Below are positions 9,432 through 64,000 of a stretch of DNA of 64,000 nucleotides, piece by piece; position 1 is the stretch's first letter; the number at the start of each line of letters is the position of its first letter. Both the position numbers and the translations under genes were made by a program. Source of the DNA: Bispira polyomma (lineage: Eukaryota); NCBI GenBank assembly GCA_965649765.1, contig OZ287753.1:28024001-28088000 (forward strand), read 5' to 3'. The notes below the pieces were generated by a model that searched no databases, was not told the origin of the DNA, and saw nothing but the letters and a program-made list of their open reading frames with translations.

Positions 9432-9627
9432 CAGTCCCCATGATAAGTATAAGGTAAAGTTAAGGTCAACCAAAGGTTTTCTATGTGTCAGGTAAATGTG
9501 AAGAAAGTAGTAAAACAATTCGATTGAGGGTTTATTTTCTACATGTTAGTACATATTTACATATTATACATAAGGTTAAAAAATTAAATGCTTAAAAACT
9601 TTTAATTTATAAAACATTTGAAGCCCC
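9432..9627 (-). repeat. Element 1 terminal repeat B2
   Basis: 196 bp, near-identical to 10532-10727; contains a sense AATAAA (tttatt at 9531-9536). Confidence 0.95.
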
Positions 9628-9840
9628 CATCTATAGGGTACTACAAATAACCAGAAGGACTAGCCAAAACAGACTATCCAGTTAAAATTACAGTTCACAA
9701 CATATATAATATGCCACCAACTTGGTAAATCAGCATATCCTATACACAATAATAATGGTCCTAAAAAAGAACCCAGTTTAAATCAAAGTCATAGATTAAC
9801 TGCTACCATACAGACAATTATTTTGCATATTTTACAATTG

Positions 9841-10299
9841 GTCCTTATAGTTCACCTCAGCCCCCAATTCAGGTGTGCTGTGTATTTTCCTGCATAATTT
9901 TCTGGAGTAATATATATTCTCCTATTATTTATTTATACAGAGGACCGCCATAGACGGCCCTAAATCGACAGGTTTGAATTGTTATTCAGAATATCCTAAT
10001 TTGTAAAATTTTTCCTAGTAGTTAATATGTTAACCTATGCAAGCACTTTTGATATCATTTCAACCTTCCCGACTAGAACTGGTGGCCTAGGACAACACCG
10101 CCTAGCAAGGGTAGGTTCAGCCTCTCAGAGCCTCTATTCCACCCTGGCACCCCAGTGGTTTGCTCAGGGGAAGGTTAAAGTAGACTGAACCCCGCCCCCA
10201 CACGGCCCCCAGCTCGGTCTAAGATGACTCATTCTCTGTACCTAATTCAAAGTTCGATGAAAGTACTTAAGTTAGCTGTGGTAAAGGGAAGATGGTGGG
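9841..10299 (-). ncRNA. Candidate structured RNA in the A2-B2 spacer of element 1
   Basis: Several long stems and sequence blocks shared, with compensatory changes, with 51245-51510 (see findings); no ORF. Confidence 0.55.
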
Positions 10300-10531
10300 T
10301 TGCTTAAAATATTTTCCACTGTTGTCATTTCAGTGGTAAAATTCAATATGGAGGAATATTCCAAAATAGCGGGAATTAGCTAGTGGTGGGGTAATTTGAT
10401 TGGTCTTAACCAGGATGGACAGAAGAATAACTGTGGTGCTATAAGATTAAATGTTTAAGGTAGTTAAATAGATATGTAGCTATGTGTATGTGGACTGAAG
10501 CAGTAGTTCCCTAAAGAGGTCCTGCTTACCA
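10300..10531 (-). repeat. Element 1 internal repeat A2
   Basis: Near-identical to 15844-16080 (few substitutions, one 5-bp indel); directly abuts B1. Confidence 0.95.
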
Positions 10532-10727
10532 CAGTCCCCATGATAAGTATAAGGTCAAGTTAAGGTGAACCAAAGGTTTTCTATGTGTCAGGTAAATGTG
10601 AAGAAGTTAGTAAAACAATTCGATTGAGGGTTTATTTTCTACATGTTAGTACATATTTACATATTATACATAAGGTTAAAAAATTAAATGCTTAAAAAGT
10701 TTTAATTTATAAAAAATTTGAAGCCCC
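10532..10727 (-). repeat. Element 1 internal repeat B1
   Basis: Copy of 9432-9627; begins just after the YR stop. Confidence 0.95.
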
Positions 10728-10735
10728 AAGCCAAA

Positions 10736-11707
10736 CTACAAAGAGGAAGGAATAGCTGCAGCAAATGTAAGGGGTACTACCGAGGCTGCTTGTGGGGTTT
10801 TTTGTAGGTAAGCTCATACTGAAGAGGATCTCCAGAGACCATGGGCCATAATGTTCTGGAGAGAAACATTATGGTTGAAAGCAAAGGTGGCTCCCGACCT
10901 TCTGAAGGTGTGGAAGCCATGAGAGCTATATTGAATTCCTATGTGTTCTAATATGTTTTGCAATGCTGACCTAACATGAGAATCTACTATTGTATTAAAG
11001 GGCGGTTGATTTGCTGCAAATAGAGGGGCAGAGGGGCCCAGGGGCCTAGAATCTAACAAGGCTTTGATAGCAGTGACTGGACAGATACTCCTATTTTTCA
11101 GAATTGGTATCTGTATCACATGAGTATCCGTACGATTTTGTAGGTTCTTAGCCCATTTGAGCAGTATGTGTGCCCCAGGGTACCTAAATATGATATCCTG
11201 TCTTAGAAAATGTCTAGAAGAGTCAAATACAGCCCTAGAATGAGGTGCTATGTTAGATACTCTAAGAAAGGCAAAAAATGCCAGCAAGAATGCTGCCCTG
11301 TATAGTATTGGATCATCTAGGATCTGACATGCCATCTGACATGAGATCTGTTGTAACTGTTCGATTGTGAAAATGCCCTTAGGTTTGGGTTTGAACCCTG
11401 AGTTGTGTGTAAGACTCCTTAATAATAAAGCCACCGAGTTGTGAGTGAATGGGGACAAATCCCAGTTGTATTTGTTTGCAGTGAATCTAATGGCCGCCAT
11501 GTAATTGCTTATGGCTCCAGGTGACAGTTGGTTCTGTATTAAGTACTCCACAAAAGTTATAACTGCATGTACAGTTATGTGATTAATGCCAGCAATTTTT
11601 AGAAAAGCTAAAAATGTTCTGAAATGACCCTTATAAGCTGTGGTAGTCTTTGGTCTGAGTGATGTATTAATCCTTCGCCAAGCAGAGGACATCAGTTGTT
11701 GAGTCAC
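10736..11707 (-). pseudogene. Tyrosine recombinase of element 1 (premature stop before the catalytic Tyr)
   Basis: FLRVSN, KWAK, HTFRRSGA and HGLWRS motifs; TGA at 10814-10816 (likely from TGG) interrupts ...SSV*AYL..., and the frame continues to TAG at 10736-10738. Confidence 0.92.
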
Positions 11708-11725
11708 GTGACTAGCACTTGAAAT

Positions 11726-13678
11726 TTAAATTGACAAATTTGGATTGAAATAATCCACCGGTATTGGTTTCCAAACAAAATTCTTCATCAGTGTTTCTAG
11801 TATTATATCACTAGGTGGTTTGCTGGAATATATCCTTGATAGGTGGTCAGCTATTATGTTTTTCTTGCCTGGTATATGTTTTATATTTAACTTAATGTCA
11901 AAAGCTGCTGTAATCAGCCATATGTTTCTCAGGCAAGAAGCCAGAAAAGAATCTTTAGTTTTTTGAGATCCGACAACTAGAACCACAGCCATATTGTTGC
12001 AGTTGATGCTAACTGTCTTATGCTCCCAAGCTCCTGCCCATACGCGTAAAGCGACAATAATAGTTAACATCTCCAGATGTACAATGGTAAGTTCTTTATC
12101 AAAAAGGTTATAAAAGGGGGTGGCATATACTTCGTTGTTGTATATGCCCCCAAATCCTGTTAAGCAGGCATCTAAATGTAGCTCGTCAGCAAATGGAACG
12201 TTCTCATGCTTTATAAAAGTTTTTCCGTTCAATTTTTTCATGAATCGAATAAACCATTGTAGATCACTTTTCATATCTTGAGTGACCTTGAAACACTTTC
12301 TATTGTGATTGTTGCGGAAAGCTGCTAACAATCTATTTATAAAAACACGCACTGGATTTACACATTTGTGGATATATAGCAATTTCCCTAACAAGGATTG
12401 AAAAGTACTCTTGCCTATGTATTTTTTGCTGTTTACGTCAACGCAAGCTTCATAAATTTCCTTCAATTTTTCTGGTTGTATACTAATAGTTCCCTCATCA
12501 AGATCAAAATTGATACCCAAGCAGGTGAGTTTTCTGGTTGGGGGGGTTAACTTGTCTGCGTTCATGGGCAACCCTAGGTCTGTCATCAACGCGTGTAACG
12601 TTTTAAAACCTAATTCTGCCTTGTCTTTGCTTATTACGCCCATGTAGTCATCGATGTATCCGAAAACGTTAAACCCGCGCATGCGCATGTGTGATGTGAT
12701 AGAATCGGTACAACGCTGGAACGCGGCACTGCCATGCACCCACCCGAACGCAATTGCCGGGTCAATGCAGAAACCTTTGTTCCAACTAATTCCTAATTTA
12801 ACTGCGTCCACGGGGTCGACCCTTAAATTACGGAACGCCCGTGAGACGTCAATTTTGAATAACAAACCGTTATCAGTATTGCAAATCCCTTCTGTGATGT
12901 TATCTATAGTCGGAAATTTAAGAGTGAACGCAACGTTGTCGAATTTGTCTCTAGTAACGTCATCGTTTAATGAAGCCCCATACGGGTGCGAAAGATTAAG
13001 TATTACACGTCTTTTGTCTTCGTCTTTGGGTCTCGTGAGCAGGGGAGAGCAGTTATAATCATTTGAATTTATTTCATCAACTGGCCCTAACATGGCACCC
13101 TGTTGCTGTTCCTTTTTTAAGTATTCACCCACCTCATAGGGAAACTGAAGAGCAGTGAAGCGATTTTTTATGTTTTTGTTTGTAATAATATTTTTAAGAG
13201 AAAGGGGAAATCCAAATTTGATGTATTGGATTAACAATTCATCTGGGTAATTTTCCAACATTGTTTCCCAGGCCTTAATATTTAAACCTGAGCTTACAGG
13301 TATTCTGGCCTGTCTATAATTCGGGACTTGAGTTTCTCTAATTGTCTCAGCAATTTTTAAAATTTTTGGAATGGAATCAATCTTTATAGGTAGTTTGTCA
13401 GGTCCTTGGAATTGAAATTTTGTGGGTGATAATGCCAAGAAACCTATATTCTTGTTTTTATCATTAATATCAGTGAGGTCCCTGATCACAGGGTCCCCAT
13501 AGTCTTCCTTAAAGGTAAAGTCCTTAAGTTTGGGAGAAGAAGTCGGACGTACGTATCTTTTATCACAATGTACTTTACCTGTATTTGTTTGGTCTGTCGC
13601 AGCTCTACCTACTTGCTGTTGAGTACTGCTGTCTTCCACATACAGTTTCACTAGTACATTTTGTTTCACAGTTATCAA
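11726..13678 (-). CDS. Reverse transcriptase / RNase H of element 1
   Basis: KIDVSRAFRNL, FGWVHGS and YIDD; RNase H DAC, LEML, CNN (D>N) and ADHLSR. Confidence 0.93.
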   Translation of the reverse strand: MITVKQNVLVKLYVEDSSTQQQVGRAATDQTNTGKVHCDKRYVRPTSSPKLKDFTFKEDYGDPVIRDLTDINDKNKNIGFLALSPTKFQFQGPDKLPIKIDSIPKILKIAETIRETQVPNYRQARIPVSSGLNIKAWETMLENYPDELLIQYIKFGFPLSLKNIITNKNIKNRFTALQFPYEVGEYLKKEQQQGAMLGPVDEINSNDYNCSPLLTRPKDEDKRRVILNLSHPYGASLNDDVTRDKFDNVAFTLKFPTIDNITEGICNTDNGLLFKIDVSRAFRNLRVDPVDAVKLGISWNKGFCIDPAIAFGWVHGSAAFQRCTDSITSHMRMRGFNVFGYIDDYMGVISKDKAELGFKTLHALMTDLGLPMNADKLTPPTRKLTCLGINFDLDEGTISIQPEKLKEIYEACVDVNSKKYIGKSTFQSLLGKLLYIHKCVNPVRVFINRLLAAFRNNHNRKCFKVTQDMKSDLQWFIRFMKKLNGKTFIKHENVPFADELHLDACLTGFGGIYNNEVYATPFYNLFDKELTIVHLEMLTIIVALRVWAGAWEHKTVSINCNNMAVVLVVGSQKTKDSFLASCLRNIWLITAAFDIKLNIKHIPGKKNIIADHLSRIYSSKPPSDIILETLMKNFVWKPIPVDYFNPNLSI

Positions 13679-14495
13679 TTAGACAATCGATTACATCTTC
13701 CATATAATGTGTGTAATTTTTTCCACACAAGTCATTGTATTTTAAATCTTTCTTATTATTGGAGATACTATTTTTAGCTTGTTTTGTCTCTTCAATAGAT
13801 CTCACTTCAATTCTAGTAGGTACCAACTGTAGTGTTTGGTACAAAGTTTCTTGATACACACTAGTGATTTTTAGTAATCCACTTGGTTTAAATAGGACTG
13901 GGAAATACTCTGAATTAGCAGTGACCCTATTCTCAGTTTTGTAATAGAATCCTTTGTTATGACCCTTAATGTCAGAAATGTAGACTATTGGAAACCCATC
14001 CGTAGCAGTAAAGTGGTTTTTATAATTCCAATTCGTGGTAGAAATGGTAACTTTGACCTCGTGTTTTTTATATTCACTGCTAGTTTCAATTTTATTTCCC
14101 TGTCCCTTACCATATCTTGGGCTTAGTTCACTAGGTTTGATATTGTTGGCTTTAGAGTTATACTGACCCTTTTGAGTCGCATTCGGATCAGACTTATCAT
14201 TCGTGTGCCCACTTTCCACACCCTGTTGACCCTTTGTCTCAACAGATGGATAACACTCTGAAAATTTTTTGTCTGCAATAATAGAAGACATATTACTGGT
14301 ACATTTTAACACATTATTTACCTTAGTCATAAGGTTCTCCTGAGAGACATGGTTTATTTTACTTTCTAATTTGTTATCATTAGATTGTTGGTCACATTTA
14401 CCCTTCACTTTACTATTAACAAAACATATAGTAACACTATCAGTACTCTTAGTTTGACATTGCTTAGTCCACTTTCCTAGTTGTCGGTCAATTTC
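13605..14495 (-). CDS. Low-complexity N-terminal extension of pol (ORF2), in the gag frame and frameshifted relative to RT
   Basis: Frame is open from directly after the gag TAG (14496-14498) to 13605 and overlaps the RT frame. Confidence 0.55.
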   Translation of the reverse strand, partial: EIDRQLGKWTKQCQTKSTDSVTICFVNSKVKGKCDQQSNDNKLESKINHVSQENLMTKVNNVLKCTSNMSSIIADKKFSECYPSVETKGQQGVESGHTNDKSDPNATQKGQYNSKANNIKPSELSPRYGKGQGNKIETSSEYKKHEVKVTISTTNWNYKNHFTATDGFPIVYISDIKGHNKGFYYKTENRVTANSEYFPVLFKPSGLLKITSVYQETLYQTLQLVPTRIEVRSIEETKQAKNSISNNKKDLKYNDLCGKNYTHYMEDVIDCLIDNCETKCTSETVCGRQQYSTASR

Positions 14496-15728
14496 CTATT
14501 TATTGCTAGTATTGCTATCTATCTTACTGGCATTGGCCTTGAAGCATTTGAACTCTGGGTGGTTGACCTCTTTACCCAATACTTTGGCACAGTGCCAACA
14601 GTTGTGTTTATAGTTTCCATGGTCGGATTTGTATGTACATTTACCACTATTGAAGTGCTTACATATGGTTTTGTTCTCTCCTGTGAAGTTACCCTGTGAG
14701 TTAGAAGTATTGCCCCCTGAGTGGTTGTTAACTAGTGCTAGTTGAGAGGCGTTTAACCTGTTGATTGCCCATTGTGTGTTGTCTTTCCAAGTTAACCTGC
14801 CCTCCTCCACTTCCTGCATGTTAAGTGACCATGCAGAATGGACAACCGGCCACGGAAGAGAAGCAGCATCCCGGAGAGAGTACATGAGCTGTTGAATCAT
14901 ATCTCGCATAACTGTGACGTCAGATACTAAGAGGGCGTTCGAAAGCTGTCCCGCGGCCCACTGGGGGAGCGATAGCTCGTCAAAAGTTGGTTGTTTTTTT
15001 ACAGATCCGCCTACCTATCCCTCGTTTGGCCAACGACGTTTAGCATCAACTGTGGCTATGTCTGTGCTATTAAAACGGCCTGACTTAAGGTGGGGGTTGA
15101 GCTTACCTTGGGTGAGTTCTCTTAACGCTACAGCCTCGTACTGTGCCAGTTGCTGAGTTACTGCTGCCTGCACCGAAGGTAGTCCCCGTAACACATCCAG
15201 GTTGGGAACAATTCCGTCTTTAGAGAAATCTTGCTGGTTCACAGCAGGCGGTTGGATTTGTGTCGCCGGGTTGACACTTGGGACGTGAAGTTGTTGCGTT
15301 TGTAAACTCGCAAATGCAGGCAGTGATGACTGATTTTGCATGGGAAGTGGTGCCTGAGTAGTAGTTAGACTGGGTGGAGGTCTGGGTGTCGCATTCGTGC
15401 GATAGTTGGCCTCAACTCGATCCATTCGTTGTGATAAGGCAATATTTGAGGTCTCCAATCTTCTTAATATGTTTAACATTTCGTCCTCAAGGCCAGATTG
15501 TGTACTAGTGGTGGGGTTTGGACGAACGGTAGCATTTAACGGATCAACACTGATAGCACTGTCATAATTACCCACGTCTGTGTCTAATACTGCTTGCAAG
15601 TTGCGAGAAACAGAATGTGATACCTGACGACCTTCTGACATGTTTGTTGACACTACTTTAGTTCTCCTGGCTGAAGGTTTCTTTGTTGTCGCTGTATTGT
15701 TCAACGGCGTTTTCTTTGTTCAGCCCAT
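14496..15728 (-). pseudogene. gag-like ORF1 of element 1 (two premature stops)
   Basis: Single frame MG*TKK...WPNEG*VGG...FDELSLPQW...DAASLPW...; C-terminal CKHFNSGKC...H..CWHC...H...C Cys/His cluster; homologous to the gags of elements 2 and 3. Confidence 0.85.
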
Positions 15729-15843
15729 AATTGATATGCACGTTTCCGAAACACTATAGCAAGCAGTCAATGTATATATAAAAACAATGTAAAACTTATA
15801 AACTAAAATATTGACTAAAAACTCTATGTAAATGTTATCACGC

Positions 15844-16080
15844 TTGCTTAAAATATTTTCCACTGTTGTCATTTCAGTGGTAAAATTCAATATGGAGGAA
15901 TATTCCAAAATAGCGGGAATTAGCTAGTGGTGGGGTAATTTGATTGGTCTTAACCAGGACAGACAGAAGAATAACTTAAGTGTGGTGCTATAAGATTAAA
16001 TGTTTAAGGTAGTTAAATAGATATGTAGCTATGTGTATGTGGACTGAAGCAGTAGTCCCCTAAAGAAGTCCTGCTTACCA
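15844..16080 (-). repeat. Element 1 5' terminal repeat A1 (putative promoter)
   Basis: Copy of A2; begins TGGT; contains CCAAT and TTCCCGC in the sense orientation. Confidence 0.95.
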
Positions 16081-22268: not shown

Positions 22269-22524
22269 TTTTGAATTGGGATATTTAACTTCCACTCTAG
22301 TACCTGTTTAGGTTATATTGGGATGGGTAGTTGGGAACACTGGAGAAAACATTGCATACAGTTGATCAAGGTTCTGCACTGAAACCAGTGGCCCACAGTA
22401 AGGAACTACCACCTTTCCCACATAGGCCTCGATGGGAGTCGAACCCACGCCACCCGATCACATAGGTGAGAAACCAGTGATTGTGAAGCGCAATGCTTGC
22501 TAACCACTAAGCCACCGCGGCCCA
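22269..22524 (-). mobile_element. Full-length tRNA-derived SINE with 13-bp TSD
   Basis: A box GGTGGCTTAGTGG, B box GGTTCGACTCC; TSD ctcttctgcagta at 22256-22268 and 22525-22537; same family as 47637-47888. Confidence 0.9.
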
Positions 22525-36475: not shown

Positions 36476-38249
36476 CATAAAATAGTTGTACATGATGAGA
36501 TGTCTAAAATAAAAATAAAATTATCAGATGGTAGCTTGTTCCAAAGCTTATTTTGTTACAGCTGACTTAGTTTGTATCATAGGTTGACTTATTTTGTATC
36601 ACCAACTAATGCTCTAATTTCCTTTGCTAGGTTATATTGTTTATTTCAACTTACACCTACTACTGCCTGGTGTAATTTTCTCATTATTCTCATCACTAAA
36701 CAGGCAAAAGTGAGACAGCAAAAAATAGAACAGCAATAAAACAATAGTATCATACACCAAACAACAGCACCATTTGGCCGTTTACAAATGTGTGTGCGAC
36801 AGCTTCATTAGAATCATTATATATTTTTCTACTAAGGTCTTGGTCTATTTATTTGCTTTTTCTGAAAATACAGTTGATGGTATTTTTATGTAGTTTTGTC
36901 AGCATATTGATTGACATTACCTCAGCTGTTGCTAAGTTGATGCTTCTTTTGTGATAGTTTTGTCAATGTGTTGATTGACATTGCCTCAGCAGTTGTTAAG
37001 TTCATGGTTTTTCAAAGTAGCGACAGGTAATACTCGGAGATCAAAGCGTTTAATCCATTGAAGTTAATACTTCACAAAATTAATTTTCAATAATCCTATG
37101 GGGAATGCAATTACCATAAAATCTTCAATTGCTGCTCAGTAGTGTCTTTTGTGTTAGGATAAATGTAACACTGATAAAGAGGTTACGCTTTTACCTGTGT
37201 CCGTTTATTTGTCACCAGGTTATACCCAAATCTATGGCACTGATTTACATGAACTATGGTTTAGGAACAGAGCATGGGCCAATAAAGAAGAATCCCATAA
37301 ATTCTGGACCAGATCTAGGTGGATTTTTGTTTACTTTTTACACTGTTCAGAGCGGTAGAAGTATACATTCTACCGATTGCCCTTCTAGTTTGTATAATAA
37401 ACTGTTATTTGAATGGTTAAAGTAAAGTTATAAGTAAAATTAAGGGGTATTTTAAGTGTTCCAATGATTTTATAACAAAAATTTATGTCTAGTAAATTTA
37501 AAAAGTAGAAACTAATAAAATTTAATTGCAGCTAAAAAATTTATTGTGTACATTTTTATTTATCACCAAATACAAATCTAGACACATTAACTGTGTATAA
37601 CTGAGAAAGGTGTTAAAGCCAAACACATCTTCCATGTGACAAAGTCCCAGGAAAAAAGGTAAACATAAAAACCTATTTCATCTGCATTTCACTTGTTAGC
37701 ACTGACAATGTAAACAGGCAAAAGTGTGACTGATCTAACAGCTAAAACTGCATAAGCAGATTTTTTTTTTGTATGACTACTAAGGCCTTGCTCCACTTTC
37801 ACCACCTTAGCTAGCCATTTCGGAGGGATCTAGGCAATCTAAGCGACCTACAATTCGGACTGGTTGTACACTGTTCATACTAGATTTATAGTAGACTTTA
37901 GTAATTGCCATATGCAAGTTCTCAACTGGCTCCTAACTTGACTACAACTCATTCTTTCTGTGACTATTACCTTATGTCATGAATGTAAAATATGTAAGTG
38001 TTGGTACAATTGCATGTGGGTCAAGTTGAGAATGCATCACATTTTCTGTAGAAATATGGGTAGGTCTAATTAGGTAATCATGGGACAACCAAAACACATT
38101 GCTGACACAACAGCCGTGATCTTTGCTAAACTACTGTGCTATCCTTAAGATGACAATTGGTGGTCAACTTGACCCTGGTGATTCTAATCTTGCATACAGT
38201 TGTTTAAAGGGTTTTTGTAAATGATATTCATCGTAAAAATGTGCTTGGA

Positions 38250-39680
38250 ATTTAGTTTGCTGTTACAGCGCTTTCAAAAGCTTAGGTCATAGTCATATCA
38301 TGACGGCCAGGTTTACTGGTGGAAGAGACCAGTGGTAAAGCATTATAAACCACCGACCCATCCCAAGTACCTGACTTATTGTTTCCAACATGAAGGAACG
38401 AACAGGATTCAAACCCAGGCGCTTCTAACTACTAGGCCACGTGGTATAAGGCTCACCACTGTGTAAAAACTAGACTTCCAGTATTTAGTATAATATTAAT
38501 CCCATTTATCTAATGTAACGGGGTAACTAGACATTTGTGTTCAATACAAGAATAGATAACTATGTTTTTGTCTCAAAATAGAAAGAGCAGAAACAGGTAA
38601 AAATAAGTTCCTACAAAAAATATTTGTAAAATTACAAATACAATTTGTCTGGCAAGATGAAAAAAATAAAAGAAATTTATGGTACATCAGGATCACAAGG
38701 CACCCTTAACCTACCTTAATATATTAATGAGCACATTGTTGTCTGTGGTGTTCTACTTCATCAATACTCTTTTACGTTTTTTTCAAGGACATTCCTAAAC
38801 ATGTACCTTAAAAGGTGTCGAAGAACAATCCACGATAAATGAAAATGAAACCATTTTTGAAAAAGTCACCTATTTCTCAAATATTCTTTGTATTTAGAGG
38901 ATTAATACAATTTTAATTATATATTTTTCATACTTCATTACATGCGTTTTATGTCATGGCTCATATCAGCTAGAAATATTTTGCTATATCTATAATAGGG
39001 TTTAATGACTAATCATAAATATACAGTTGTCAATACCTTTAGCAGCTATAATCACCGATATCTAGTGCAGTATCTTTCTGTAAAATAGCGGTATTACAAT
39101 TGTAACTTGTAACACAGCCCAGATGTGTCAATGGTCAATTGATTAGGTTGTATACAATTAGTATTTTACAGCATCAAATCGAAACCATTTAATAAAAAAT
39201 CCCATTCTCAAGATTAGAAACTTAATATGGCTAGATAGCTCTTTACATATATTCAACGTTGGCTGCAATTATGTTTAAAAATTAATATTTAAAAGACAAT
39301 CTCTTTTCAGTAATGCCTGCCATCATGGAAATCAGTGACATAATTATACTTTTATCCAATAACATATTTATTTTTCACAATAAAATACCTTATCCCCTTT
39401 ATATAGGCCAGTATCTTTGGACAATGAATAGACTAAACACCATAATTGTCAATTACATGCTTCTTATAAGTAATTCTAATTTAGAGAGGGATATCAATTC
39501 ACATAACATACTAGACTACATACATCTCTTACACTCGTGATATCTACTGTCAAAATAGGATATATTGCCAAGAGATAATTTTGTGAAAGTATGTAGTGTT
39601 AGTACAGCGAGGAAGGGGTCTCTTTAGACCCCTCGAAAACTAAAAAAGACAGTGACACCCATTTATAGATTTTGCCTAAT
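38250..39680 (-). repeat. Composite repeat unit, copy D (partial), starting with a SINE at ~38255-38440
   Basis: Direct homologue of 30920-32230; SINE body similar to 55890-56090. Confidence 0.8.
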
Positions 39681-40140
39681 CGACACCTGGCAAGTTACTA
39701 TGTCCTCATGTAGATACAATAACTGAGGCGAAAACAAAGCTAGTGTCTGATCATACCCGAACTGTGTACGTATACTCAATTTATGGTGGAACTATTGTAA
39801 ACAAAAGAGCCCCAGTAAAGATTTTATAGGAACTAAACCTGGTTAAATATAGTGATTGAAGCAAATATTTGTTTTATTTTGAAATTAACCTTAGTCATGG
39901 ACCTTGTACAAAAGCAGCAGCTGGGAAGTATAGTTGGTCTATTGTTTATGTTAAACTAAAATGTTCACACAGACTGTAACAGTGAAGTGAGTTTAACACT
40001 TTAATTACATTTCTTAACTTACAATTATTACTAAAGCTCCACGGTGTTTCTAAAGATCTAATTAGATTCCTTCATCGTAATTGATTGCAGTGTAGTAAAA
40101 AAAAAGTTATAGAAACAATGCTATTTAATTTATATATATA

Positions 40141-40264
40141 TGTTACAGTAAATATGTAAAATCAGTAAATACGCATATTTACTGAAATTTTCAGTAAATA
40201 CGCGTATTTACTGATTTGGTCAGTAAATACGCGAATTTACTGATTTCACATATTTACTGTAACA
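40141..40264. mobile_element. 124-bp fully palindromic MITE-like element in a (TA)n tract
   Basis: TGTTACAGTAAATATGT...ACATATTTACTGTAACA termini; three internal 24-bp palindromes at 29-bp period. Confidence 0.8.
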
Positions 40265-43200
40265 TATATATGGGTGACTTAAAATTCTTTGGGTAATCTA
40301 AATATACATTAAGAAAGTATTCCTTGTGAATCAGGCCTTCCCAACTGCAGTATACTGGTTTTTAAGCTAGTAAAATTTCAACTAATACTTGGCAAAGTAC
40401 ATGTATATGATATTCTATACTAATAATATACTAAAAGAAGAAATGTCACAAAAGGCTTTTCTCTGGTGTTAGATGTTAGTTATTACCAATTTTGAAAAAA
40501 AAACTTACTCTAGTAAAAACAATATGTTCCCTACCTTGAATCTAAGGCGTACTTAACAGTTACTGGTTCTTTAGGAATCTGGCCCAAGAATTATACTTCA
40601 AAGAGACTTTGTCAAGCCTTCACACTAGTAATTTCCAACAATGACAAGTTTGTCTACTGCAGGCAAGCTGTAGGCAGCACGCCTGAGTTTGAAGCTATTT
40701 GAAGAGAGATTTATTGGGGTAAAGGTCAAATCAGGATTGTGAAACGGGGGTATTAAGACCAGAATAGCTTTTGTGAAGAAACCAGGCCTTTGCAGTTTTC
40801 ATCTAGGTATCTTTGCTTTGGTTATATTTAGAAGCATTATATCAACAATTATTTTATATTTCTCATCAAAGAGCAACCGTTACAAGGCAATAGATACACA
40901 ATTTATATATATATAAGAACAGGACTCATGTTAGTTTTTATTCCATCATATCCTACAAACTATAACACTGGGTCACAAAGATTCAAACTGTGAAATGGCA
41001 TTATCTATGTTAGCACAATAACAATACTTCTGTAGGCCAATATTGGTTTTTAGTAGTTCAACATGAATCAGTGGTCAGAGTTATACTTCAACCAAACTTC
41101 AAAAGTATTAAGATTAGTAAACTAAGTACCCTAAAATAAATCTATGATCTTTTTTATATCAATATTATGCATACTTACAGACAACTGATTCTTGTGTACA
41201 TATAGATTAACAGTATGTAAAGATAAAACTATAATATTATACACATAAGTAAGTAATACCACTTGAATGACTCCTTTTTAATGTAAAAATAGATATTAAA
41301 CAAATTAGATTATGCTTTTATAATTAGGTATTACTTCATTTTTAAATGATCACAGTGTACCTAAAACAGAAGCCCACAAGTAAATTATCTTCAAAACTGC
41401 CCCCATCATAAAAATTCAGTTGAAATCCAAATTGTGAAAGGTGTATACTAATGTTTCAGAGTGTCAGTGTAAGGCTAATCTTAAATTAAGTAAGATAACA
41501 AGTGCTCTGTAATGTATGAGACACTATCAAAACAAAGGGATGAGCAAAAGTGGATTTAATTAACCACCCCTGTCCCCCAATTATTTCCCCAGTCGATTTT
41601 TTCCCTTTCCGGGGGTTTTCATCTATAGAAGTCAATTTAGTGATCACCAAAAACTAGAAGTGAATTGTTTGAGATGTATACCCTGGTGTGGTCTAAACAA
41701 AGAGAATATTTAAGGCATATATCTTTTGATAGTGTTACCTTTTTCATTGAGGGCAGAGTAAATAAAATATCCACATGATCTAATAAAGATGTAGAGCAAA
41801 ATTTTGCTATGAAAAAAAACACATAGAATATCAGGACATTATGAGTTCCAAAAGGTAGCACCATAAAGAATTGATTTATCACATCAAATGGTCTATTTTT
41901 AATACCGCATTTTTGGCAAAGACGGGTACATAATATGAACAACTTCAATTCAATGTTGTACGGTAATATACCCTCCTCCTACTCTTTACAGTTGATATTC
42001 CACCAATAATATGCTAATACCTCGGCAAATAAACTTCATTTTTTGATGTATTAATAACATCAAAAGCAATAAAAGGAAAGAGTGATTACAAGAATATTAA
42101 CGTCCAGGGCCATTATTTACTCAAGTAACTGAGGACTATTGCTACAGAATAAACTAAACCATGTTAAGGTCACCTTTAAAATATCTAGATTCTACAGGGT
42201 TTTTGGCATTAAAACTTTGCAAGTGGTTTCTACAGAGGAGGGTTTAATGCATTGTATAATTAAATTTACAGTTAAGCTTTAAATATATAAATTTAATATT
42301 GGGGCAGACTATCTCTTAAGTGGAATACTAAAAGTAAAATTTATGAGCTTCTTTATATTTATCTAAAAAGTATTTGGAACAGCACAATGTAGTAATGTTA
42401 AAATAGAAATAAAGTCAAATTAAGATTTTCTTAAAACAATAATCCTACAAATCCAGTACCATAGCTAAATCTAAATGAACTGCAAGGTATGTTTAACATG
42501 CAGACTATACTAATTTCTTATTTATATATATGCAAGTAAAATTTAACATTACTGTCATACAGGTCACAAAATGAAACTTTAAAGTTAAGGTTAATCTCCT
42601 ACACACTTGACCAACAAAATCAACCAAGGCCAGTTTTTTGTTAATAAAATGGATACATTTTGGCATGCAGCATCAAAAAGTATCTTAGCTCTAAAACCTA
42701 AATCTCAAAATGAAACTCTTATCATATCTACTAGAAATAACTCATAGACATGCAAGTACTTTTGCATAACATTTTTTTTCCAATACTTATACTTTTTATA
42801 ATATGAATACTGAATACTTACTAACAAAAATATTTCCAGAACTAAAAGCATTTTTCTCCTTTTTAAAAGTGTCGTCCTGTTGTGGTTTTAGGATCTAAGC
42901 TGTGTTTTTTTTTGTCTTTTGACTCCTGCTATTTGGTGGTAGAAGTGGGGGTTTGGAGGGTGATATGGTTTAAGCCCTTAGACACCTTTCCTCATAAAGC
43001 TTCATTACAAAGGCAAACTCTGTCAGCTCAATAGGCAATCTTGTCAGTGGGGCTACTAACAGCACCCACCCCTGCTCAATTGACAGCATGCACCTCGAGG
43101 TCAGTGGCCCGGCCCTTTTTTGGTGTGGTGTGTGAGTATGTGGAACATTAGGAAAGGAGGGTGGGGCTTCTTTCTTAATTTTTACAGTTTTTTCCCCTTT

Positions 43201-45601: not shown

Positions 45602-45764
45602 TGGTGGGCTGACGCCTATGCGACAGCCCCCTTAGTTCTAGTGGCAGATCACTGGGGGGCCAATTAGGCCACCTGGGGTCACGGGGGCAAGTATAAAGGG
45701 TTTGCCGCCAACATGTGCCATCATTATTTTAAAAGCATTTGATAGATAAGGAGTGTTTTAAAAC
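45602..45764 (+). repeat. Element 2 repeat A1 (putative promoter)
   Basis: Copy at 51080-51244; 5' hairpin gggctg/cagccc, CCAAT and GTATAAA. Confidence 0.93.
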
Positions 45765-45817
45765 TAGGGCTTTACTACCCGTAATTTTGTTTTCAACCTC
45801 ATTTTATATCTATGTAA

Positions 45818-46802
45818 ATGCCTAACAAAGAATACCCTTGTGGTGTGTGCTCTGGTTGACATGAACGTCCGGTTGGCAAAAAGTGTAAATATAACTTGGT
45901 GGACAGCGTCGCCGATGAAATGGCTGCCGTCAGTCCTGCTACTCCAGAGGTTTCGGATTCTGTTTCTGGTTTGATTCTACAACAAAGCGATGAACGAAAA
46001 GATGAATAGCATGGACCGGCGAGTGCAGGCTACAGAGGCGGCGCTGTGTACATCCAGTGACAAGACATGTAACACTTCTTTTAAATCAGTTCCTAGTGTA
46101 CCTAATACTAGTGAACCAGTAGTTGAGGCTGTTGTGCCATCCCTAGAGTATTTACGTTCTAATGCAGGGTTACAAAAGCAGGTTGATCAACGTCTGCTGC
46201 AGTTGCAGCACTTAAATGACTTAACGGGAGGTGAATTTAAGTCCCAGAGAGGTGGTGTTGAGGCCCCCATAAAGCGAAACGTGGAATGGCCACAAAATAT
46301 GACTTGTCTGGTGCAAAAAAGATTTGACCCATCTATGATGACCTTACGTTGGTTTAATTCATCTCTGGCTTTATCCAGTGCAGCCAACAGCAAAAGGTCC
46401 GAGAGGCCATGTTAGAATACCTTGCCAATTTAATGGACGACGCCCATGATTTTTCATGGGATGCTGCCAAAGCCTCTCATGCCATTTTATTAACTAATAT
46501 GGAAATGGATCATCTCAGTTGGACAGACGTTGACAAGGTTGACCAGATAAGGCATGCTCATGCACACCATCATATTACCTCGGCATCGGGTGGGTCTGGC
46601 CCTTCTAAAACCAGTGGTAATGGTAAAAACAAAGTACAAGCTAAAACTCCTGGAGTTAACTGTCGTTTCTTTCAAGATGAAATGTGTAAATTTAAGGCCA
46701 GCGATCAAACCTCTAGACAGTGGTTCAAACACTGCAGTGAGAGTTGAGAGGGTACTCACCAGAACAAAGCTATGTCCTAAGAAAGTGGTGACAAAAAACT
46801 GA
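45818..46802 (+). pseudogene. gag-like ORF1 of element 2 (stops and frameshifts)
   Basis: MPNKEYPCGVCSG*HERPVGKKC; VVPSLEYL; VEWPQN; DAHDFSWDAAKA; CRFFQ; ends VVTKN*. Confidence 0.88.
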
Positions 46803-46828
46803 GGGGCCACTGTGACAGTGCAGTGGTT
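46793..46828 (+). promoter_or_regulatory. Putative -1 ribosomal frameshift signal (A_AAA_AAC, 5-nt spacer, hairpin)
   Basis: Heptamer in correct phase immediately before the gag stop; stem ggccactg/cagtggtt; the -1 frame is homologous to that of element 3. Confidence 0.7.
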
Positions 46829-49464
46829 AACAAGAAATTTGTACATAGAATATACTCTAGAGTTGGATGTAAATCTACCTTTTCAGATTTTAAACTGTTT
46901 AACCATGTAGTTTTAATTCTAATGTATATGTGAAGCAAATTGTCCCAAGGCCTTATCGGGACATGCTGAAACAGGGCACAAGTGGTGTCGTTGGAAATTT
47001 CAGCAGAAAACCTAAGGTTAGTGAAATTGGAGAAATACTTGAAGCCATGGCCCCTATTGCTACAGTCATGTCACGAAAAGGTGGTAAACATGTTTCTAAC
47101 AATCCATTGTTCCCTACAAAACGTGGGGACAAAAACAAAATCAATCCTGTTGCCAACAAACCATTGTCTAGGTTGAATGTTTGAACTGTTAAGAAACGTG
47201 TTGAAAACAACTCAGTAAACGTGTCAAAACAGAACCATGGTTCCTCTGTCAAGCCAATTAAGTTGAGTGTTATCAACTCTAACAATGGACAGGGGTTTCC
47301 CCCATTGTCAAACCAATTAAGTCGGGTTAAACAGAACAATGAACCTGATAGTTTCAGGTTGGCCCTTTATAATAGGTTTGCTTGATTGAACAGTGCGTGT
47401 GTAGAAACAATGGAATTAGGTGACACTTCACTTGAGGGGGGAAGTCCTTACTGTGGTCTGACTTTGACACAACATAAAAAACCGACTACAAAATTAACCC
47501 ATTGTGATGACAAGTATGCTTTAGACCTCCTTAGAGGCCCTGACAAAAGACAGCGCTTAAATGAAGCTAAGGACTGTGTGACATACAAATTGTGGGACGT
47601 GCAAAATAGTGGCAAATATGGGTTCATTCCTACTAGTGGGGCCGCGGTGGCCTAGTGGTTAGCAAGCATTGCTCTTCACAACTACTGGTCTCTCACCTCT
47701 GGGCGGCGTGAGTTCGAATCCCGTCGATGCCTCTGTGGGAAAGGTGGTAGTTCCTTACTGTGGGCCGCTGGTTTCTCTGCAGAACCTTGACCGACTGTAT
47801 GCAGTGTTTCCTCCAGCGTTTCCAACTACCCGTCCCAATATAACCTACTAAAAGGTACTAGAGTGGACGTTAAATATCCAAATTCAAATTCATTCCAACG
47901 AGCTTTTACTTTACACAAGCACCTTAGGTTGGATGGATGTCACAACTATAGGGGCCTACAAATACCTGTTAACACACAACCCAATGCTCAAGTGTGGGCC
48001 AAGTATTTGAAGAATTATTGGGATTGGGAACTCCCCTTACTAATAAAATTCGGGTTTCCCCTAGACTGTAATGGTAAACATGAGTTTAAGTCTGAGATTA
48101 GTAATCATTCTTCTGCCTATCAATATCCCAACCACGTGGCTCATTACTTGGAGGAAGAATGTTCATTGGGTGCCATGTATGGGCCGTTTGCAGTTCCCCC
48201 TATTGAAAACATTCACACTTCCTCATTCATGACTAGAGACAAATCAAGCTCGATCAACCGAAGAGTCATTATAGATTTAAGTTGGCCAGCAGGCCATTCG
48301 GTTAATGCATCGGTGTCTTCCAATTCATATTTATACAAGGAATACTTACTTACCCTTCCATTGACATCATCACCAGCCAAGTTTTGGCCATGGGTAGGGG
48401 TTCCTTGATATTTAAAGCTGACATTAGTCGAGCCTTTTGACACGTGACTATTGATCCGAAAGACATAAATTTGTTGGGTCTATACTGGGATAGCTACTAT
48501 ATCGATGGCTCGTTACCCTTCAGTTATCGGCACGGATCAGTTATTTTTCAAAGAATTTCAGGCAAAATAAGGTACATAATGGAAGGTGAAGGTCACCAAA
48601 TCACCAACTACATCGATGATCTGTTATGTTGCTCTATTACGTCTAAAATATACAAAAGCAGAGCTAGGCCTGACCCTTAACCAGAGGAAGCTGGTTCCCT
48701 CAGCAACTAGGGTGTCATGCCTTGGTATAGTCATAGACTTGGTTCAATTCAACACTTCTATATCAGAAGAAAACTTAATCAATATCAAAAACAAGTGTAA
48801 CAAATGCAGTAATAAAAAATCTTGCACAGGGTTCCTTGTTATATGTGTCTAAATGGTCAAATGTGTCAAGAATGTTGTAACTTCTGAGAAGCAATCATAA
48901 AAGTAAAAGTATGAAAATTACCCCTGAGTTCCAAAAGGATCTGAACTGGTTTACTGCTTTCCTTTATAAATATAACCGGGTGGCTTTTTTCCATCATGCC
49001 CCCATCACTGCCATGATTGAGTTAGATGCCTGCCTCACAGGTATGGGGGGAATTCATGGAAAACAAGTCTACTACCTCCCTGTTCCTGTTGCTATGCAAC
49101 ACCACAATATTGCCTCGTTGGAAATGTTAAACATTCATGTCGCTCTCAAGTTGTGTGGAAGACATTGGCATGGTCACAAAATACTAGTAAAATGCAACAA
49201 CCAGGCTGTTGCAAGTGTCCTCACTCATGGTAGAACTCGAGACAGTTAATTAGCCTTGTACTCCCGAAATATATTTATTTCAGCCAGCCAGTTTGATTTA
49301 GAGCTAAAAATAGTGTATTTATAGGAAATGACAACACAACTGCTGACCTGCTGTTTTGTTGGATAAATTCTACTAAAGATAACGTTCTCTTGCAGGAGCT
49401 GGCTGGCACTGTCCAATGGTGTACACTGACTGAAGATCACTTGTTGCTTAATGACCATATATAA
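46799..49464 (+). pseudogene. pol (RT/RNase H) of element 2, heavily disrupted and SINE-interrupted
   Basis: RVIIDLSWP, DISRAF*H, YIDD, LDACLTG and LEMLNI fragments in different frames. Confidence 0.9.
47637..47888 (+). mobile_element. tRNA-derived SINE inserted in element 2 pol
   Basis: A box GGTGGCCTAGTGG, B box GTTCGAATCC; imperfect 14-bp TSD ttcattcctactag (47623-47636) / ttcattccaacgag (47889-47902). Confidence 0.9.
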
Positions 49465-49507
49465 TGTATTACTGTGTCCTCTTTCTCTTGGCAGTACTTT
49501 GTGTTAG

Positions 49508-50473
49508 AGGAAAGAGTCCTCTGCAACAGTTACTCTAAAAAATGCAACTAAGAAGCTGCACCTGGCCTTCTGCAGATCAACCGACAAATCATATGCAGCC
49601 ATGTATAGGGTGTACTTAGCTTATGCCACATTCTCGGATCAGCCCGTTGATCAGGTGACAGTTATTGATCTTTTTGCATTTGTAGAATTGTTGCAGTATA
49701 ACTATTTATCTGCCATTTAAGGCTAAGTGTATTGTGTATAATGTACCAATTTGTGCCTTCAGTGACCCTCGTGTGGCCTATTATCAAAAAGCTGTGCAAT
49801 TAGCTGCCCCCCTCCATGTAAAACTTAAAAGATTATAGATATACCACTTTTGACCAGTATTGTGAGTACTTCCCTCACTACTTACATGGGCTTAATTTTT
49901 AAAGCACTTTATCTTGTCAGCTACTTCTCTTTTCTTAGGCTATCAAATTTAGTACCTCACTCCAGTGTTCAGTTCTCCCCTTTAAAACATCTAGCTAGGG
50001 AAGATGTTATGATTCACAGGAACAAAGCTGTCCTCCTTGTAAAATGGTCTAAAACAATGCAAAGAAACAACCAAATTAAGTTGATTACAATTCCACGACT
50101 GCTGGGTTCCCCCCTTTGCCCGGTGATGTCACTGGAGGACATCTTGGCTATTACCCCTTCTGAACCAAACGTCCCTTTATTTCAGTTTAAAGATAATACA
50201 AAATGGGTTCCCCTTACCAACACTCGGGTTCGTTTGCATTTCAAAAATGTACTTGCCAGGTTCCAACTAAAAGATTCTGGTCTCACCCTACACGCCTTCC
50301 GACGTTCGGGTGCCACGTTTGCTTTTAACCACAATGTTAGTATTGAAAATATCCAAAAACATTGCACTTGGATGTCGGACTGCGTGTGGAACTATGTCAC
50401 CGACTGGGTGGATGCTGGGCATCAGGTGGCTCATACATTCAGGCAACATCTCTCTACTACCTCCCCTTCTTAG
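49508..50473 (+). pseudogene. Tyrosine recombinase of element 2 (N-terminal half disrupted)
   Basis: FLRLSNL, KWSKT, LCPV, HAFRRSGA and HCTWMSDCVWNY. Confidence 0.92.
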
Positions 50474-50491
50474 ACTCCTACCTGGTGGGCT

Positions 50492-51078
50492 TGGGTGTTT
50501 GTAGTCAATTAGTCAACCTTAGTTTATATGTAACTTAAGTCATTAAGTAATATCCTTTGATTCAATGTACTGAGATGGTAGTAATGTACAGTGTTGTCTG
50601 CACATTACAACTAGTTCTTTAACTTAGTAGTATTTGCATGTTACAACAATTACTTTAACTTATCTTCTTAACTTACTCTTAACTTAAAATAGTTAACTTT
50701 GCAATAGAGGTTAGTAACACTATTTAAGTGCAACTCCTAAAATTTAACTCTCTCAGTTCAAAAAACTACGGTCACCTTATTTTTGTAATTAGCCTACGGG
50801 CTGTGTAAATTTCTATTAACAGTAACCTATATCAGGTGACCTTACCCTTTATTAGAATCATGGTACGTAAAATATTTATTATTATTTAAGTGACCTTAAG
50901 TCACCGAATTGGTAATTGGTTCAACTTTAGTTAAGGTCACCTTAACTCTTTCGTATTAAAACTTTTTTTTATATTTTAACACTTATACTAACAATAAAAT
51001 AAATATCTTACTGCATTCTGTTGTTATACTTATCTTGCCTTCTTGACCTCTGACCTCTGGCCTGTCACGCGGGGAAAT
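50492..51078 (+). repeat. Element 2 repeat B1
   Basis: Near-copy of 51720-52303; AATAAA near the 3' end. Confidence 0.93.
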
Positions 51079-51079
51079 G

Positions 51080-51244
51080 TGGTGGGCTGACGCCTATGTG
51101 ACAGCCCCCTCAGTTCTGGTGGCAGGTCACTGGGGGGGCCAATTAGGCCACCTGGGGTCACGGGGGCAAGTATAAAAGCATTTGTCGCCAACAGTCGCCA
51201 TCATTATTTTAAAAGCATTTGATAGATAAGGAGTGTTTTACAAC
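51080..51244 (+). repeat. Element 2 repeat A2
   Basis: Copy of A1; retains the TATA box (gtataaaa ~51169-51176). Confidence 0.93.
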
Positions 51245-51510
51245 CCACCATGTACCCTCCCATTTACCAGCTTGTTGTAGTTTCAGAATGCAGTTCACCA
51301 TGGCTTCCACAGTTAACAGTGACAACAGTACCCTTATGGTATAGCTAGCTGCTTGTACTCTGGTGGTCTAGATCCTCGATATTCATGTTAGGTAGGGTGC
51401 TATTTTGCTTAGCCATGCAAGGGACCCAGGATTTAGCTAGAAGGATCTCTGTAAATAACCTAGTCAACATGGTTTATCACTAGATAAGGCTTAAGGTGAA
51501 GCACATGGAC
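51245..51510 (+). ncRNA. Candidate structured RNA in the A2-B2 spacer of element 2
   Basis: Stems ttcacc/ggtgaa, catggct/agccatg and agtaccct/agggtgct plus a crossing helix; blocks shared with the element 1 spacer. Confidence 0.55.
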
Positions 51511-51719
51511 TGTCCGGATTTTAAACGAAGCAGACATTTACGTTAATCAGTTTTAATTCTTTTAACTTTACACTTATACGTACTAATAATTATCTATTGT
51601 AACTATTTTACTTGTAACTGTTTTATATTGCTTACCTGCACGTGAGCGCTTTTCTGTTATCCTATGAAGTATTTTAATTACAGTATTTTTATGCGGTTGA
51701 TCCACTAGCTGTTTTGTAG

Positions 51720-52303
51720 TGGGTGTTTGTAGTCAACTAGCCAACCTTAGTTTATATGTAATTTAAGTCATTAAGTATTATCCTTTGATTCAATGTACTG
51801 AGATGGTAATAATGTACAGTGTACAACTCGTACTTTAACTTAGTAGTATTTGCATGTTGCAACGATTACTTTAACTTATCTTCTTAACTTACTCTTAACT
51901 TAAGTAGTAGAGGCTAGTAACACTATTTAAGTGCAAATCCTAAAATTTAACTCTCTCAGTTTAAAAAACTAAGGTCACCTTAATTTGGTAATAAGCCTAC
52001 GGGCTGTGTAAATTTATATTAACAGTAAGCTATATAAGGTGACCTTACCCTTTATTAGAATCTTGGTACATAAAATATTTATTATTATTTAAGTGACCTT
52101 AAGTCTCCAAATTGGTAATTGGTTCAACTTTAGTTAAGGTCACCTTAACTCTTTCGTATTAAACTTAGTATAACCTTAAGTCATCTTGCATATAGTAGTT
52201 TTAACACTTAGACTAACAATAAAATAAATATTTTACCGTATTCTGTTGTTATACTTATCTTGCCTTCTTGACCTCTGACCTCTGGCCTGTCACGCGGGGA
52301 AAT
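51720..52303 (+). repeat. Element 2 terminal repeat B2
   Basis: Near-copy of B1; ends cgcggggaaat. Confidence 0.93.
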
Positions 52304-59926: not shown

Positions 59927-60960
59927 ATGCCAGGTAAAAAGACTGTGTTTTGTCCGAAGTGTTTGCAAAAACATGAGAGACCTGTTGGAAGAAACTGTTC
60001 AGTTAATATGCCTGATATCTCGGGTGAGGGGGTGGAAGTTGATGCTGGCTCCCATGAGGACTCGCTGGTTCATCCGAACGAGGCTGTATCTAGCGCTATA
60101 CTACAGCAGTTGCAATCTCTCAGCCAGGTAGTGGAGAGGATGGATCAGCGAGTCCAGCAGACGGAGGCAGCGTTGGCAGCTAACCTCACCAGTAGTAAGG
60201 CAAGTAGTACCGTTACTTCTAGTATCACTCCTAGTGTTTCTAAAGATTTAGTCTCTGCTGACGAAGGTAAAAGCCCACCTACTGGCCCGGATATTGTCGT
60301 TCCGAGTGTCGAATTTTTAAGTCAGAACGCTCAGATTCAGTTGCAAGTAGAACAGAGGTTAAAAGAACTCCGGTCTCTTAATGAAATTCCCTCAGGTAAA
60401 ATTAAGTCTCAGAGAACTGGGGGGAACGAGGTTAATGTAAAAAAGGCGGTCGAATGGCCCCAGAATTATGTGCTGACTGGCAAGACTCGCCCTAGTTATG
60501 ACGACTTAACCCTCGTACAATGGGTTTGTGGCGTCACCCGGATCGCTCACGAGGAGAAGTCGATTGAAATTAAGAACGCTATGCTAGATTACATGAGTGG
60601 CCTCATGGAGGACGCCCAAGATTTTTCGTGGGAGGCAGCGAAGGCCTGCCACATGGTAGTCCTGACAAATATGGAGATGGACAAGTTCGGGTGGTTGGAT
60701 GTCGAGAAGGTCGACCGGATCTGCAGGGCACACGCCCAACGCCATGTAGGTGTGTCCAGATCTTCTCATGGGGCGAATGGCCGTGCTGGTAGCACTGGCA
60801 GTAGTAAAACTAGTCAGAAAAAGTCAACACCTTGCAGGTTCTTTCAAGAAGGAACTTGCAAGTTCTCTAACTCACATAATACAGGTGGGCAAATGTACAG
60901 GCATGGTTGTGAAACTTGAGGAAGACCAGTATGTGTAGCAAAAAGGAGGCAAAATACTGA
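59927..60960 (+). CDS. gag-like ORF1 of element 3 (open to 60919; probable original end ...CSKKEAKY* at 60960 after a small deletion)
   Basis: N-terminal C-x2-C-x3-H-x7-C; coiled-coil-like segment; EWPQN, SYDDL, DAQDFSW and CRFFQEGTC. Confidence 0.9.
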
Positions 60961-60984
60961 GGGGCCACTGCTTGGATGCGGTGG
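60951..60984 (+). promoter_or_regulatory. Putative -1 frameshift signal with mutated heptamer (A_AAA_TAC) plus hairpin
   Basis: Same position and context as in element 2 (ACTGAGGGGCCACTG identical); stem ccactgc/gcggtgg. Confidence 0.6.
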
Positions 60985-63477: not shown

Positions 63478-63501
63478 CAGGTTGTAGTTTTCTTTTTTCA
63501 G

Positions 63502-64000
63502 GCACTCACCCTGTGGGTCTGGCTCTGATGAGACGGGCTTGTGATAGGCTGAACTCAGCTCTCACTCCAGCCACTAATAAAGCATATGACAGGATGTTCC
63601 GACAGTTCCTAGCTTTTGGAGTCTTTATGTCTTGGCCTCCCCACAAGGTGACTGTGTTGCAAATTTTAGCATATCTAGAGTTCATAAATTTCAATGGTGT
63701 TTCGGCCTCTCAGGTAGTAAATCACATGTCGGCTGTGAAGGCAAAATGTGTCATGTTTCATATAGATGTGCAAGTATTTTCTGATCAGAGAATTTCTTAT
63801 TTCACTAAGGCCATGGCTATGCATAGACCTTTACAGGTGAAGTTGAAGTCAATTTTTGATGTGCACTTGCTTAGGGCTCTGATTAGTAAATGTGATAGTA
63901 CTTACATGGGGCAGATTTTCAAGGCTGTTTATTTGACAAATTTTTTCACATTTTTGCATTTATCCAATCTGTGTCCTCATTCAATGGGGTCATACTCTCC
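63502..64000 (+). CDS. Tyrosine recombinase of element 3, N-terminal part (not in the ORF track because it runs off the window)
   Basis: Open frame ...LMRRACDRLNSALTPATNKAYDRMFRQFLAF...FKAVYLTNFFTFLHLSNLCPHS; the first catalytic Arg reads His (CAT 63957-63959); first ATG at 63528. Confidence 0.9.

Follow-up and report, generated by a model that had tools for sequence, protein, structure and literature searches.

In the closest described systems, the gag-pro sites of beta- and deltaretroviruses and the lentivirus gag-pol site with its stem-loop, the canonical signal for -1 programmed ribosomal frameshifting consists of a slippery heptamer, X_XXY_YYZ, a spacer of 5-9 nt and a structure, according to the sections of the review available to us (PMC3542737), and A_AAA_AAC ranks among the shiftiest heptamers in the accessible part of another paper (PMC5009743). 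Such a junction is described here for retroelements of Bispira polyomma, in a 64,000-nt stretch of contig OZ287753.1 (positions 28,024,001 to 28,088,000 of the forward strand; hereafter the window, G000:C6:28024001-28088000 in the 1.035-Gb genome of 75 contigs that was searched). Mouse mammary tumor virus (MMTV) and human T-lymphotropic virus (HTLV) use the same heptamer, A_AAA_AAC, at gag-pro. The window contains three decayed Ngaro-type retroelements (elements 1 to 3), each with gag, reverse transcriptase (RT)/RNase H and tyrosine recombinase (YR), and the original prediction was that elements 2 and 3 make a Gag-Pol fusion by frameshifting. Every prediction that could be tested at the level of sequence held, and it is very probable that -1 frameshifting yields an uncleaved Gag-Pol in a large clade of Ngaro-type elements.

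The Ngaro junction is similar to the retroviral sites, as presented in the same sections of PMC3542737, in the heptamer, the 5-9 nt spacer, the 3' structure and the overlapping -1 frame, and would be similar also in the ratio of Gag to Gag-Pol. Unlike retroviruses, the Ngaro-type element has no protease, DDE integrase, env or long terminal repeats (LTRs), and unlike the retroviral sites, the Ngaro junction has a simple, short hairpin whose loop is free as its putative stimulator, and the fusion is probably not self-cleaved. The animal retrotransposons with -1 gag-pol frameshifts and PEG10 are LTR elements, unlike Ngaro, and a review that treats them, in the part accessible to us, makes no mention of DIRS or tyrosine recombinase. 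The Ngaro literature, in the available portions, describes only overlaps of open reading frames, whereas here the signal is located at gag-pol and YR lies behind an acceptor-like site.

No published slippery site at the gag-pol junction of a DIRS-order element was found in the accessible portions of the literature, and the available sections of PMC8547959, PMC6681497, PMC7192593, PMC5633606 and bioRxiv 2022.06.16.496473 contain nothing on a gag-pol signal, although Poulter and Butler 2015 and Goodwin and Poulter 2004 may cover gag-pol. The novelty suggested originally has to be narrowed: programmed frameshifting has already been proposed for the Ngaro RT/RNase H-YR overlap (Poulter and Butler 2015, quoted in the part of PMC13003380 available to us). 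What emerges is a strongly conserved, putative canonical -1 signal in a class of elements where it seems to be undocumented; the mechanism itself is textbook and half-expected. If true, tyrosine-recombinase retrotransposons would join retroviruses and LTR elements as users of -1 frameshifting. How DIRS-order elements produce RT and recombinase is unsettled in those parts of the literature that we could consult.

The gag-pol junction of element 2 and its relatives

The gag of element 2 ends, as originally noted, with A_AAA_AAC (46793-46799) and TGA, and the 5-nt spacer leads to the expected stem, with arms at 46805-46813 and 46820-46828 enclosing a 6-nt loop. All components of the canonical signal are present, namely, an in-phase X_XXY_YYZ heptamer (in the window copy, in phase with the last gag codons only), a spacer of 5 nt to the full stem or 7 nt to its core, a predicted fold with one compensatory pair, and a downstream -1 frame that overlaps the shift site. 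The 45 nt 3' of the heptamer have a predicted folding energy of -13.3 kcal/mol (z = -2.3), and the z values for 12 further copies range from -1.6 to -4.8. From the C of the heptamer, the -1 frame reads LRGHCDSAVVNKK...FSDFKLF up to a stop at 46931-46933.

The element 2 copy is dead, with stops in gag, a broken pol and repeats that are 87-92% alike, compared with 99-100% in young copies. The junction lies between two single-base changes, a private insertion ~30 nt before the heptamer and a deletion ~110 nt after it, so that only the last gag codons share their phase with the heptamer. The window copy is, then, a dead fossil of the frameshift arrangement, and the case rests on its relatives. The element 3 junction is as originally described (one substitution in the heptamer, TGA, and a stem with a different loop); the substitution is private decay, given that the exact heptamer and stop are present in 27 of the 30 family-3 copies.

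In the proposed mechanism, most ribosomes would terminate at the gag stop and release Gag (~330-370 amino acids), whereas a minority would pause at the hairpin 7 nt downstream of the heptamer, the Lys and Asn tRNAs on A_AAA_AAC would slip back by one base, and translation would continue in the -1 frame to yield a Gag-linker-RT-RNase H fusion of ~1170 amino acids. The Gag part of this fusion would then bring RT into the particle. Because no protease is encoded, the fusion probably stays uncut.

Conservation of the junction is evident across the genome. The heptamer and the stop are found together in 28 of 30 family-2 loci (27 with the 7-bp stem core as well), and the stem core accompanies them in 24 of the 30 family-3 loci. 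The exact group-1 pattern (heptamer-stop-hairpin) has 340 genome matches compared with 0 for the same pattern read backwards, and therefore is not a chance occurrence. Relaxation to any Lys-Asn codons and any first base brings the number of matches to 359, so that 95% (340/359) carry the exact heptamer; the loops are 6 nt long in all 100 group-1 matches listed and have many different sequences.

The tails of Gag proteins from other assemblies led to the search for a group-2 pattern, in which the heptamer is followed by one extra codon, the stop, a G and a hairpin with the outer pair G-C rather than C-G. This pattern has 461 matches in the genome (control 0), or 525 when relaxed (control 1), with the exact heptamer in 461/525 (88%); many of the additional relaxed matches listed have AAT before G, as expected from CpG decay. 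In both groups, 7 nt separate the heptamer from the stem core, although in group 2 the stop is shifted by one codon, and TAA, TAG and TGA are all used. Among the 26 distinct hairpin variants, the outer pair is C-G in 6/6 from group 1 and G-C in 19/20 from group 2, the loops are nearly all different, and the loop-closing bases can pair in 14. The hairpin thus behaves among the relatives as predicted, with the spacing kept, the loop variable and one compensatory change. A pseudoknot is unsupported because the loops differ freely and the 90-nt folds have only the hairpin in common.

Young copies retain the heptamer, and 28 of 30 loci retrieved with the Gag protein alone carry it by manual count. 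Seven of these 30 loci represent a third lineage, in which the heptamer is kept and precedes an unrelated sequence that may form a longer stem or a pseudoknot. The codon preceding Lys-Asn is GCA (44), TCA (21), ACA (8) or one of four others, all ending in A and encoding Ala, Ser, Thr and other residues. These numbers come from a tally anchored on the palindromic hairpin with both strands counted (166 matches at ~83 sites, of which 78 have the exact heptamer); it excludes loci L109-L138 and L229-L230. In the gag background, A occupies the third position of 207/802 four-fold codons (26%), and the codon ratios are 128 : 70 for AAA : AAG and 52 : 67 for AAC : AAT. The base that starts the heptamer is always A despite the varying residue, which points to constraint on the nucleotides and not on Lys-Asn. 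The 35-nt signal is ready for use in a reporter, and hundreds of natural variants reveal which bases matter. In single copies, loss of the gag stop or deletion of the junction, changes that appear to be private, has left gag and pol in one open frame.

The pattern seems to reach beyond this genome. Outside Gag homologues, 101 in number, are at most 62% identical to the sequences retrieved from B. polyomma; 54 of them have a zinc finger close to the C terminus, and of these, 26 end in Lys-Asn-stop, 16 have one more residue after Lys-Asn and 12 end otherwise. In other frames, a few broken outside Gags continue past the junction as P-L-Q-x-C-S-G or A-L-Q-x-C-S-A, the peptides that would be expected from translation of the two hairpins. 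Junction DNA sought through Gag alignment had no match in metagenome contigs, and the search through RT alignment produced two short loci lacking the junction and none in viral or prokaryote contigs; a search for long fused Gag-Pol proteins gave two, neither informative on the junction.

Alternative routes to Pol and expression of the recombinase

The properties of the -1 frame are those of a coding sequence from the junction onwards. Among the longer family-2 stretches, all 18 have the end of gag at the heptamer; in seven of these, the -1 frame opens 42-51 nt upstream of it and runs for 820-870 codons through RT, and in the remaining ones, it mostly opens at the heptamer and is interrupted further downstream. 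In 17 copies, the first ATG lies 17 to 389 codons past the heptamer and is not shared, and over the same pre-ATG spans, the +1 frame contains 3-53 stops. The ratio of nonsynonymous to synonymous substitution rates (dN/dS) is 0.33-0.42 over ~60 codons from the hairpin to the first Met in five between-subfamily pairs. The description of pol as ATG-less has to be qualified accordingly: no ATG is conserved, and young copies have no stop in the -1 frame between the heptamer and the end of RT/RNase H, but in-frame ATGs do occur, at scattered positions. Annotation based on ATG shortens these pol genes by 17 to about 390 codons.

These observations bear most directly on the alternative that survives best, albeit as an improbable one, namely, that pol is translated from its own ATG, via internal initiation, reinitiation or a subgenomic RNA, and that the heptamer and hairpin serve another role, such as packaging or a palindromic DNA site. 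Most copies indeed contain in-frame ATGs and the hairpin is a DNA palindrome, but a start anywhere from codon 17 to 389, a pre-ATG frame that stays open with dN/dS below 1, and the fixed 7-nt distance from an in-phase heptamer, which is ribosome-scale geometry, all favor frameshifting. For PAT elements, separate transcripts have been reported.

Splicing, in which a phase-1 gag donor would be joined to a CAG within the 3' hairpin arm (phase 1 in pol) to give Gag(N)-Pol, appears very improbable. The heptamer and the 5' arm would be left unexplained, the candidate acceptor has no pyrimidine tract and its AG is buried within the stem, and the third lineage, without the hairpin, still has the heptamer. 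The CAG is, nevertheless, invariant and phase-compatible, a conserved donor is present in gag, and in group 1, the CAG nearly always follows T-G (TGCAG), with a branch-like word, CTRA, ~21 nt upstream; group 2, however, has a variable base (A, G or T) before GCAG and no CTRA, and the same elements have T-rich acceptors at YR, quite unlike this CAG. Least credible of all is an extra A from polymerase slippage during transcription, which would give the same fusion from the A6 run found in all copies, but the run is just six long, always ribosome-phased and C-ended, with the hairpin at ribosomal spacing.

Several considerations weigh against frameshifting or weaken its support. Because the copies are related, the ~800 matches do not count as that many independent events and correspond to perhaps a few dozen subfamilies, spread over three lineages. 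Protein constraint may contribute to the conservation of the stem arms, which also encode His-Cys and Ala-Val in pol; there is a single clear compensatory change, at the outer stem pair, and the stem that is conserved is a short one of 7-10 bp (about -13 to -22 kcal/mol). The protein tails were already known when the group-2 pattern was built, and one Gag query itself ends with KNE; the cross-species support is at the protein level only. The 17 copies used for the first-ATG count were selected for long open frames, and in the dN/dS comparison, one pair is saturated and two within-subfamily pairs yield 1.95 and 0.58.

For the recombinase, a different route is suggested. Depending on the subfamily, YR lies in frame 0, -1 or +1 with respect to pol, which argues against a fixed frameshift at YR. 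Upstream of the conserved YR start, the most T-rich YAG falls in phase 1 in 45/47 copies, and a mid-gag Gly codon is GGT in 49/51 distinct contexts compared with 55/160 in the background, consistent with a phase-1 donor. From these patterns, it is considered likely that YR is made from a spliced Gag(N)-YR message, which calls into question the proposal, in the part of a review available to us, that the recombinase is a frameshifted product. Three unlabelled contig runs aligned to a young copy cover the flank and the element alike, with no donor-acceptor joint among those listed, and favor neither side. Candidate gag donors are seen in both clades, at 46227-46238, 60392-60403 and 15099-15110 (minus strand), with acceptors near 49500, 63500 and 11720.

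The UAG junction of the element 1 clade

Element 1 lacks the heptamer at the gag-pol junction and has instead an in-frame UAG, so that frameshifting would not be the route of all Ngaro elements in this genome. By manual count, TAG-G closes gag in 28 of 30 element 1 relatives. Among 20 stretches from other subfamilies, 18 likewise have TAG-G, and in 10 of these 18 the same frame continues without a stop for at least 700 codons, with the RT motif in nine. The first ATG is located 15-89 codons past the UAG, with the frame open throughout and 1-24 stops in each of the other frames. Production of Gag-Pol by readthrough of this single UAG appears to be the better explanation for the clade, held with slightly less confidence than the spliced YR message. 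The clade resembles type III readthrough systems (gammaretrovirus UAG-G, luteovirus AAA-UAG-GUA) in its gag-UAG-G-pol arrangement in one frame, and several of its subfamilies have AAA-UAG-GUA, the luteovirus context; UAG-G is the type III context in the sections of PMC3542737 at hand.

Unlike type III readthrough sites, the element 1 clade has no compact local structure: none was detected within 100 nt 3' of the UAG in 24 sequences (z from -1.0 to +1.5), which counts against readthrough. A linear motif, C-r-A C-x-A C-y-A G, recurs instead ~10-21 nt downstream. The alternatives are reinitiation at a nearby ATG or use of TAG/G as a splice acceptor, which it formally is, although the upstream pyrimidine content is only 0.35 compared with 0.63 at the YR acceptors.

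In an unrooted RT tree of 30 sequences with no named Ngaro reference, the 11 in-frame sequences make up one side of a branch with 100/100 support, and frameshift groups 1 and 2 form a branch with 95/93. A switch between frameshifting and readthrough is predicted among related elements within one genome. It can be tentatively conjectured, with somewhat more doubt than conviction, that Ngaro, lacking protease, integrase and env, independently reached the full retroviral plan, with plain Gag, Gag-Pol made by -1 frameshifting or, in the sister clade, by UAG readthrough (as in HIV and MMTV versus MLV), and YR made as an env-like spliced Gag(N)-YR, so that all enzymes would be carried into the particle as uncleaved Gag fusions, the readthrough clade with an undescribed, structure-free linear stimulator.

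Classification of the elements and other features of the window

By their structure, the elements are assigned to Ngaro as defined in PMC3783388, PMC3266345 and bioRxiv 2021.08.05.455354. The Ngaro layout given in the available parts of these papers is A1-gag-RT/RH-YR-B1-A2-B2, without a methyltransferase. Here, the order gag, RT/RNase H, YR, all in one orientation, is common to the elements and their relatives, and split direct repeats A1 ... B1-A2-B2 are found in elements 1 and 2 and in several longer relatives, with 99-100% identity in the youngest (Table 1). The Pfam matches RVT_1 and RVT_3 are above the cut-offs, and in a young relative, there is no match to methyltransferase, protease or DDE integrase up to E 1; for element 1, Phage_int_SAM_1 is above the cut-off. 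Phage_integrase remains under it (E 0.003), with H-x-x-R nonetheless present. Pol ends just past RNase H.

A DIRS1-like identity was rejected: inverted terminal repeats, an internal complementary region (ICR), a methyltransferase and a long pol-YR overlap are all missing. PAT-like elements form a methyltransferase-bearing sister group of DIRS1 with split direct repeats; the elements described here share the repeats but have no methyltransferase, which speaks against a PAT-like identity.

Table 1. Coordinates of the Ngaro-type elements and their features in the window
Feature	Position	Strand	Remarks
Element 1	9432..16080	-	Ngaro-type, in-frame UAG clade, split direct repeats
Element 1 repeats	A1 15844-16080, B1 10532-10727, A2 10300-10531, B2 9432-9627	-	Repeat comparison
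Element 1 gag-pol junction, AAA TAG G	14478..14501	-	Pol in same frame (candidate readthrough); then C-r-A C-x-A C-y-A G motif
Element 2	45602-52303	+	Ngaro-type, decayed, split direct repeats
Split direct repeat A1, element 2	45602..45764	+	92% to A2
Gag, element 2	45820..46802	+	Decayed; C-terminal Cys/His zinc-finger region
Candidate phase-1 donor in gag, element 2	46227..46238	+	Putative G/GT before K-S-Q-R motif; gag codon comparison
Slippery heptamer A_AAA_AAC, gag 3' end of element 2	46793..46799	+	Exact heptamer and stop in 28/30 family-2 loci
Pol (linker, RT, RNase H), element 2	46799..49464	+	Several stops and frameshifts interrupt it
-1 frame (pol N-terminus, LRGHC...), element 2	46799..46933	+	Shortened by one-base deletion
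Gag stop TGA, element 2	46800..46802	+	TAA in other subfamilies; one codon later in group 2
Predicted stimulatory hairpin, element 2	46805..46828	+	9-bp stem, 6-nt loop; conserved 7-bp core 7 nt past heptamer
tRNA-like short interspersed nuclear element (SINE) inside element 2 pol	47640..47895 (ends approximate)	+	Repeat pairing; gap against relative
YR gene, element 2	49500..50476	+	Decayed; T-rich candidate splice-acceptor region before it
Split direct repeat B1, element 2	50492..51078	+	87% to B2
Split direct repeat A2, element 2	51080..51244	+	Repeat comparison
Split direct repeat B2, element 2	51720..52303	+	Repeat comparison
Element 3	~59.7 kb to window end		Retroelement with gag, RT/RNase H, YR
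Element 3 junction	60951..60984	+	TGA and hairpin; heptamer differs by one private substitution
Pyrimidine tract and AG before YR frame, element 3	63488..63505	+	Candidate phase-1 acceptor; acceptor comparison

Repeats A2 and B2 of element 2 are separated by ~480 nt (51245-51719), and a similar or longer spacer recurs in the relatives. A younger family-2 copy is located at G000:C6:27999641, ~24 kb before the window start, and forms, together with the three window elements, a local cluster of Ngaro insertions. The tRNA-like SINE inside the element 2 pol has a second, inverted copy at 22309-22455; ARAGORN found no tRNA genes in the window. The window is AT-rich, and a cluster of further dispersed direct and inverted repeats occupies 27400-40300, the region where a 78-nt tandem array (34912-35301) and ~62-nt repeats (32980-33235) are located.

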